Positions 645 to 700 of a DNA stretch of 700 bases are shown piece by piece (positions within the stretch are counted from its first letter, which is position 1; the number at the start of each line of letters is the position of its first letter). Source of the stretch: Escherichia coli (GTDB lineage: Bacteria > Pseudomonadota > Gammaproteobacteria > Enterobacterales > Enterobacteriaceae); assembly GCF_003334335.1 (NCBI RefSeq), contig NZ_QOWQ01000155.1; one strand, 5' to 3'. The notes below the pieces were generated by a model. It ran no database searches and was not told the origin of the DNA. It saw only the letters and a list, made by a program, of their open reading frames with translations. A program made the translations under genes and the position numbers.

Positions 645-700
645 ATGACAGTCAGAATATCGGGCGTGCTGAAGGACGGCACCGGGAAGCCGGTGCCGGG
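645..700 (+). CDS. stf: Side tail fiber protein (Stf-like), N-terminal 18 codons only; 3'-truncated by the window edge
   Basis: ATG at 645 with a Shine-Dalgarno 6 nt upstream. The translation MTVRISGVLKDGTGKPVP closely matches the N-terminus of lambda/K-12 prophage side tail fibers as I recall it (MAVKISGVLKDGTGKPVQ...). Its position directly after lom matches the lambda gene order. It is too short for the ORF track to report. Confidence 0.7.
   Translation, partial: MTVRISGVLKDGTGKPVP

Follow-up and report, generated by a model that had tools for sequence, protein, structure and literature searches.

The window analysed here, a stretch of 700 nt of Escherichia coli DNA to which all coordinates refer unless another record is named, breaks off 18 codons into an open reading frame. 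Which gene does this frame belong to, and what kind of protein would follow if the sequence continued? In our view 645-700 is, with high confidence, where the side tail fiber gene (stf, orf-401-like) of a P-EibA-type prophage begins, a prophage of the lambda-like (siphovirus) kind; the remainder of the gene is read below from a record that is 99.9% identical. In itself this is an ordinary side tail fiber start, and it marks the beginning of a mosaic, host-range-determining fiber gene. In substance the finding is already known: the gene was deposited as AF151091 and classified in 2012, and a structure from 2025 provides the mechanism of the N-terminal domain.

The coding frame lies on the plus strand. 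It opens with an ATG at 645-647 and contains no stop through base 700, which gives 18 codons and two further bases. Direct reading of the sequence shows a Shine-Dalgarno-like GGGAGA at 634-639, 5 nt upstream of the ATG. The closest upstream stop in the same frame is at 570-572, and from there to 645 no other in-frame start is found. The frame translates into MTVRISGVLKDGTGKPVP, while the N-terminus of lambda orf-401/Stf, fetched from NC_001416, is MAVKISGVLKDGTGKPVQ. These two peptides share 15 of 18 residues, and the underlying DNA 40 of 56 bases; the first 18 residues of K-12 StfR are the same as those of lambda Stf. A preliminary description of this DNA, made from its letters, had recognised a nearly identical lambda/K-12 Stf N-terminus, which is confirmed here. 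It had counted two substitutions near the start, A2T and K4R, both of which are correct; residue 18 adds a third (Q18P).

At the codon level the two starts are less alike. In comparison with lambda, 13 of the 18 codons differ, ten of them synonymously and three non-synonymously, and this synonymous excess points to purifying selection on the stf frame. The 18-codon pattern is what an old divergence, preserved by selection on the reading frame, would be expected to leave, and neither chance nor a recent exchange with lambda would account for it. Over residues 1-91 the codon changes are 27 synonymous against 36 non-synonymous, at 65% nucleotide identity. A chance ORF at 645 is ruled out by the synonymous-biased substitutions together with the synteny and the full-length homologue described below. 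We also considered ATG 632, which is in another frame, as a start. It would open an ORF of 55 aa (length in AF151091), lacks a ribosome-binding site and is ATT in divergent relatives, and we judged it to be spurious. On the minus strand a 43-aa ORF at 551-682 overlaps both the terminator-like hairpin and the start of stf; it has neither a ribosome-binding site nor other support and was judged spurious as well.

When the window is compared with phage records by megablast, it is identical at 699 of 700 positions to AF151091.1, prophage P-EibA of E. coli ECOR-9. The sole mismatch is at position 460 inside lom, so that 645-700 and the whole lom-stf spacer are identical in the two. At 460 the window has T where AF151091 has G, corresponding to Asp and Glu, respectively, in Lom. 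The allele of the window is also that of JE86-ST05 and PhiR5_1, and the difference may mean that the window and the GenBank entry stem from different assemblies or strains, or that AF151091 contains a base error. The frame opened at window position 645 runs for 479 codons in AF151091, where it is annotated as an 'ORF-401-like protein' (AAF63232). A termination shortly after codon 18, which the preliminary description had named as a possible objection, is absent from this 99.9%-identical record; the window itself ends at codon 18.

Further, several complete E. coli genomes, JE86-ST05 among them, and phage PhiR5_1 match the window at 98.5-99.6% identity. Complete fiber ORFs of 478-523 aa are found in all three records that are at least 98.5% identical over at least 97% of the window, at 1208-2647 in the AF151091 locus (L001), 12644-14080 in the JE86-ST05 locus (L002) and 8622-10193 in the PhiR5_1 locus (L003). 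The order J-lom-stf is kept in all three, and lom itself lies within the window. In the complete relatives a lambda-like tail operon, gpU to gpJ and then lom, precedes the fiber gene; JE86-ST05 has the full tail operon, and PhiR5_1 was submitted as a complete phage genome, its host being named as E. coli C.

What, then, does the complete protein look like? In the 479-aa protein of AF151091, residues 1-134 match the full model of the prophage tail fibre N-terminal domain (PF08400, E 2.7e-42), of which the window provides residues 1-18. A weaker match to CarboxypepD_reg, a carboxypeptidase-regulatory-like fold, covers residues 5-82 (E 5e-9). Collagen repeats are located at residues 135-190 and 310-384, with three collagen matches in Pfam, and between these runs the phage tail fibre repeat 2 (PF03406) is found at residues 259-300 (E 7.8e-16). 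The 479-aa protein has no match to PF06820 (PfC). As a whole it matches PHROG 366, 'tail fiber protein', with an E-value of 3e-109. With BLASTP, residues 1-131 are 53% identical to lambda orf-401 (E 1e-39), and a second block in common with orf-401, at 56% identity, surrounds the phage-fiber repeat motif. The similarity to tail fibers thus extends well beyond residue 18, so that the other possible objection of the preliminary description, a lack of similarity past this point, does not hold for this record.

In agreement with this domain order, the protein has been classified before. Ghosh et al. 2012 list ORF-401 of P-EibA from ECOR-9 in their Table 3 as EPclC, with 479 aa and collagen lengths of 117 and 75 (PMC3368898). 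The order PfN - Col - Pf2 - Col followed by a C-terminus unrelated to PfC, which defines the EPclC architecture, is what we find, and EPclC proteins are usually without the long PCoil segment. The same authors take PfN to be the probable viral attachment site and the C-terminus to be the end that probably binds the cell, and they explain the diversity of the fibers by modular recombination (PMC3368898). The EPclA and EPclB proteins of EHEC (e.g. ECs2717 and Z1483) likewise have a PfN (PF08400) N-terminus that is followed by a collagen triple helix. However, they have a long PCoil segment and end in PfC (PF06820), both of which are missing from the P-EibA fiber, and its tip is unrelated to theirs. 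For EPclA it has been shown experimentally that the protein is trimeric and has CD spectra of the collagen type (PMC3368898).

The preliminary description referred to the N-terminus as a tail-attachment module, and here the comparison with a structure is informative. Residues 1-91 align without gaps to the lambda Stf collar (residues 1-91 in PDB 9E7M/9MGH; phmmer E 3.1e-31). In the 2025 cryo-EM structure of Ur-lambda, residues 1-94 of Stf fold into a beta sheet of six strands and a helix, and twelve such N-terminal domains make up a collar around the junction at which the gpM ring adjoins the last ring of gpV (PMC12617516). Three collar domains are joined by flexible linkers to each of the four trimeric fibers, and the loop between beta4 and beta5 of Stf touches E63 of gpV and R80, K2 and W6 of gpM (PMC12617516). 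The prophage of JE86-ST05, which has the same fiber start, encodes a gpM that is 79% and a gpV that is 67% identical to their lambda counterparts, and the contact residues (E63 in gpV; K2, W6 and R80 in gpM) are all conserved. Both the homology of residues 1-91 to the lambda collar and the conserved contact residues bear out the earlier label.

From this homology we infer that a phage of the P-EibA type would build the same collar as Ur-lambda. The genome from which the window was taken would, judging by JE86-ST05, carry the cognate gpV/gpM surface, although in detail the contacts could differ from those in lambda, given that the identity is only about 55%. In such a particle twelve copies of the N-terminal domain of about 91 residues would encircle the tail at the boundary between the last gpV disc and the gpM ring, and would anchor four trimeric fibers. 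Going by the carboxypeptidase-regulatory-like beta fold, to which the domain is homologous, the 18 residues encoded in the window probably make up the first strand, a turn and the beginning of the second strand. Beyond the N-terminal domain a short helical linker would lead into two collagen-like triple-helix runs on either side of a conserved 'phage fiber repeat 2' knot. At the far end of the fiber, a small and rare distal domain presumably binds a receptor on the host surface and would thereby speed up adsorption.

In T5 (p132) and DT57C (LtfC), twelve copies form a tail collar that anchors the side fibers by an analogous mechanism (PMC12617516). The difference is that the collar is a separate protein in T5, while in lambda and P-EibA the fiber supplies it with its own N-terminal domain.

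The fiber is not equally conserved along its length. When the 479-aa protein was searched against 50,697 phage records with tblastn, 307 of these matched, and coverage of at least 80% was reached by P-EibA alone. The sampled matches in phage records are limited to about residues 1-100, with 35-60% identity. At the other end, the last 103 residues are found in two of the 50,697 records, one of them P-EibA and the other phage GER2, which comes from an O117:H7 strain. These distal 103 residues (L001:2336-2644) contain no Pfam domain. Among the near-identical relatives JE86-ST05 and PhiR5_1, the N-terminal 343 residues are nearly identical, and from about residue 385 the tip is replaced by barely similar sequence. 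The preliminary description had stated that the distal part is swapped by recombination, and this agrees with both observations.

Further, the same 18 residues, with no more than three substitutions, are found at the start of fibers that measure 401 (through the lambda frameshift), 422, 425, 434, 478, 479, 523, 687 and 1120 aa. Since the N-terminal module is widespread while the tip is rare and swapped, the gene is a mosaic at two levels, with joints between collar and shaft and between shaft and tip. The collagen (Gly-X-Y) runs also differ between relatives by in-frame indels, for example by a gap of 24 residues in JE86-ST05 and by additional repeats in PhiR5_1, which suggests that fiber length may be tuned by slippage in the collagen repeats. 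The attachment domain remains under purifying selection because it must fit the conserved tail, while shaft and tip are exchanged by recombination and length shifts through indels in the collagen repeats. The locus is a clean worked example of a conserved attachment domain with an exchangeable shaft and tip, which is useful in the engineering of phage host range.

The comparison with the best known relatives shows where the P-EibA locus follows them and where it does not. Over 645-700 the window is identical to the gene for the P-EibA ORF-401-like protein, and the lom-stf context is the same. With lambda Stf (orf-401 plus orf-314; gpStf of Ur-lambda, 774 aa) and StfR of K-12 Rac, the P-EibA fiber has in common the N-terminal collar domain and the phage-fiber-repeat-2 motif. 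In these genomes, too, stf directly follows lom behind an intrinsic terminator, and the gpV and gpM partners of lambda are conserved. In contrast, the shaft of the P-EibA fiber is collagen-like where that of lambda is an Ala/Ser-rich coiled coil, and its tip differs from the OmpC-binding tip of lambda.

The region that follows the fiber gene differs as well. In lambda the next gene is tfa. In P-EibA it is ORF-191A, which matches DUF4376 (E 1.7e-20) and PHROG 1141, 'tail fiber protein' (E 6e-78), while its similarity to lambda Tfa is not significant (E 0.049). Of the comparison with known fibers and an adjacent tfa that the preliminary description had put forward, the similarity of the fiber itself holds, whereas the gene that follows belongs to DUF4376. 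Invertible tail-fiber switches of the Pin/Gin/Cin type are known from Rac and e14 of K-12, from Mu and from P1, and K-12 Rac carries stfR-tfaR-pinR. Downstream, the annotations of AF151091, JE86-ST05 and PhiR5_1 contain no recombinase, and a scan for inverted repeats gave only short imperfect ones, those that overlap the fiber gene being collagen-repeat DNA. An invertible segment or recombinase downstream, which had been suggested as a possibility, is consequently absent from the three related records, and the arrangement belongs to K-12 Rac.

After ORF-191A, P-EibA continues with eibA, encoding a YadA-like immunoglobulin-binding adhesin, and with other cargo. In all three close relatives a gene for a YadA-like trimeric autotransporter adhesin is located after the fiber genes, near the end of the prophage. 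This gene, eibA or a relative and regarded as lysogenic-conversion cargo, is found at 3918-5096 in L001 (AF151091), at 15037-16500 in L002 (JE86-ST05) and at 11587-12660 in L003 (PhiR5_1).

It should be asked whether the frame is part of a working fiber gene at all. The prophage might be defective, with the stf-like frame as a remnant whose fiber is truncated or never assembled. The window does stop at codon 18, and decay is seen elsewhere in the group: a related locus (L009) has IS elements and a degraded piece of J but no stf, and E2348/69 has fragmented pseudogenes of the fiber C-terminus downstream. Further, hardly any lom or stf transcript is seen in cultures of E2348/69 (baseMean about 2 and 7, respectively). 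However, low expression in a lysogen is what is expected of a late gene, and the three closest records contain complete ORFs of 478-523 aa, in JE86-ST05 together with its tail operon and in PhiR5_1 within what is deposited as a complete phage genome. The synonymous bias of the substitutions, in addition, reflects selection on the protein. Taken together, we find it improbable that the frame is such a remnant.

Another possibility is that the protein acts mainly in lysogenic conversion, as a collagen-like adhesin that is secreted or exposed on the cell surface, an idea that has been raised for the collagen-like proteins of EHEC prophages. Its collagen-like runs do resemble those of streptococcal Scl and Legionella Lcl, and the gene lies among lysogenic-conversion cargo, with lom upstream and eibA downstream. 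But the resemblance is one of low complexity and below curated cut-offs: the collagen-like NCBIfam adhesin models score 97-119 bits where their cut-offs are 325-500, and the matches reflect repeat composition only. None of the annotated domains has a function in secretion or anchoring, the N-terminus is a beta domain of cytoplasmic type that is homologous to the virion collar, and the gene occupies the position of stf in lambda, behind a terminator and without a recognisable promoter of its own. A primary role as an adhesin is for these reasons very improbable, and a side tail fiber gene is the reading that we retain.

How would such a gene be expressed? In the late transcription of lambda, RNA polymerase modified by Q reads through terminators. 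Directly upstream of stf, the window contains an intrinsic-terminator-like hairpin of 13 pairs followed by 8 T (arms at 597-609 and 614-626, the whole element at 597-631, plus strand), which was found by a terminator scan and in both the minimum free energy and the consensus folds. Its T run ends 13 nt before the ATG of stf. Since stf lies directly behind this terminator, the gene is probably expressed only by Q-antiterminated late read-through from the upstream tail genes, and by the same analogy with lambda the hairpin probably ends those lom transcripts that are made in the lysogen.

At the corresponding place in lambda and K-12 Rac there is also a terminator hairpin, though a different one. 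The spacers of lambda (L004:787-850) and K-12 Rac (L016:1986-2049) are identical except for one block of changes in and next to the hairpin loop, which is GGAACCGGT in the former and GGTTCAGGC in the latter. Either sequence still folds into a GC-rich hairpin, an indication that a terminator is selected for at this site.

The remainder of the window consists of lom and of the spacer that separates it from stf. The 3' two-thirds of lom, which encodes an outer-membrane beta-barrel of the Ail/Lom type, take up 1-493 on the plus strand, with the frame running from base 2 to a stop at 491-493; the gene corresponds to lom at 457-1056 of AF151091. It matches PHROG 108, 'Lom outer membrane protein' (E 5.5e-94), and OmpX/Rck-like models of NCBIfam.

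The spacer, at 494-644 on the plus strand, is a separate and modestly interesting loose end because of its conservation. Defined by alignment with lambda and by spacer lengths, it measures 151 nt, against 64 nt in lambda and K-12 Rac, an excess of about 85 nt. Of 5426 complete E. coli genomes, 1650 (about 30%) carry at least 80% of its length, mostly at 90-95% identity. In the loci examined it carries no annotation.

Within the spacer the most conserved part is a nearly invariant core of 74 nt (558-631, plus strand). Among six divergent loci 2-7 of its 74 nt are changed, whereas the coding sequence on either side has diverged by 27-40% (binomial P about 1e-8). The core is absent from lambda and K-12 Rac; since Rac has the short lambda-type spacer, K-12 is uninformative as a well-annotated reference. 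An RNAalifold consensus of five variants predicts two small hairpins on the plus strand, with arms at 540-547/556-563 and at 564-570/575-581. The core comprises the 3' arm of the first of these, the second hairpin, a single-stranded stretch of 15 nt (AAGUUACACUGUCCU), the terminator and its U-tract. Covariation in the two spacer hairpins amounts to one-sided changes (U-A to U.G), with no compensatory pairs, as the sequences are too similar.

Upstream of the hairpins, TGTTATAAT at 525-533 on the plus strand is, by direct reading, an extended -10-like sequence (TGnTATAAT) and a candidate promoter element, without a good -35. At the same offset, TGTTATGAT or TGGTATAAT is found in nine of nine related loci, and the motif TGnTAnnnT is present in all variants. 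A scan of the window for two-hexamer consensus promoters found nothing.

We can only tentatively propose a role for this region. On the basis of its layout, which is that of an sRNA of the Hfq type, about 90 nt long, it is possible, though we would not count on it, that a conserved noncoding module precedes stf. Such a module might be a prophage sRNA or an sRNA derived from the 3'-UTR of lom; it might also be a cis-acting element that controls read-through, or a crossover 'linker' for the exchange of fiber modules. If it is expressed, it would be a widespread prophage sRNA or regulator, given the share of complete E. coli genomes in which the spacer occurs. E2348/69, in which lom and stf are nearly silent in culture, carries the spacer. 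In the RIL-seq data for this strain there is no lom-stf intergenic entry among the entries listed, which is weak evidence against an sRNA expressed in the lysogen. A scan of the spacer against Rfam 15, with E-values up to 10, gave a best score of 15.9 bits where the gathering score is 39, and the weak matches are driven by the terminator.

Finally, the spacer was compared with sRNAs that have been published from prophages. It is not AgvB, AsxR or EcOnc03, whose sequences are unrelated, nor 24B_1, whose oligos do not match; PasA-D were also considered. PasB in particular can be set aside, as it maps to the spacer between gpI and gpJ and to the opposite strand. In E2348/69 (L007) this published sRNA lies in a gap of about 240 nt between gpI and gpJ, at 2757-2996, on the strand opposite to the tail genes. 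A gap of the same size between gpI and gpJ is present in JE86-ST05 (L002, 8107-8355) and in PhiR5_1 (L003, 4091-4330).
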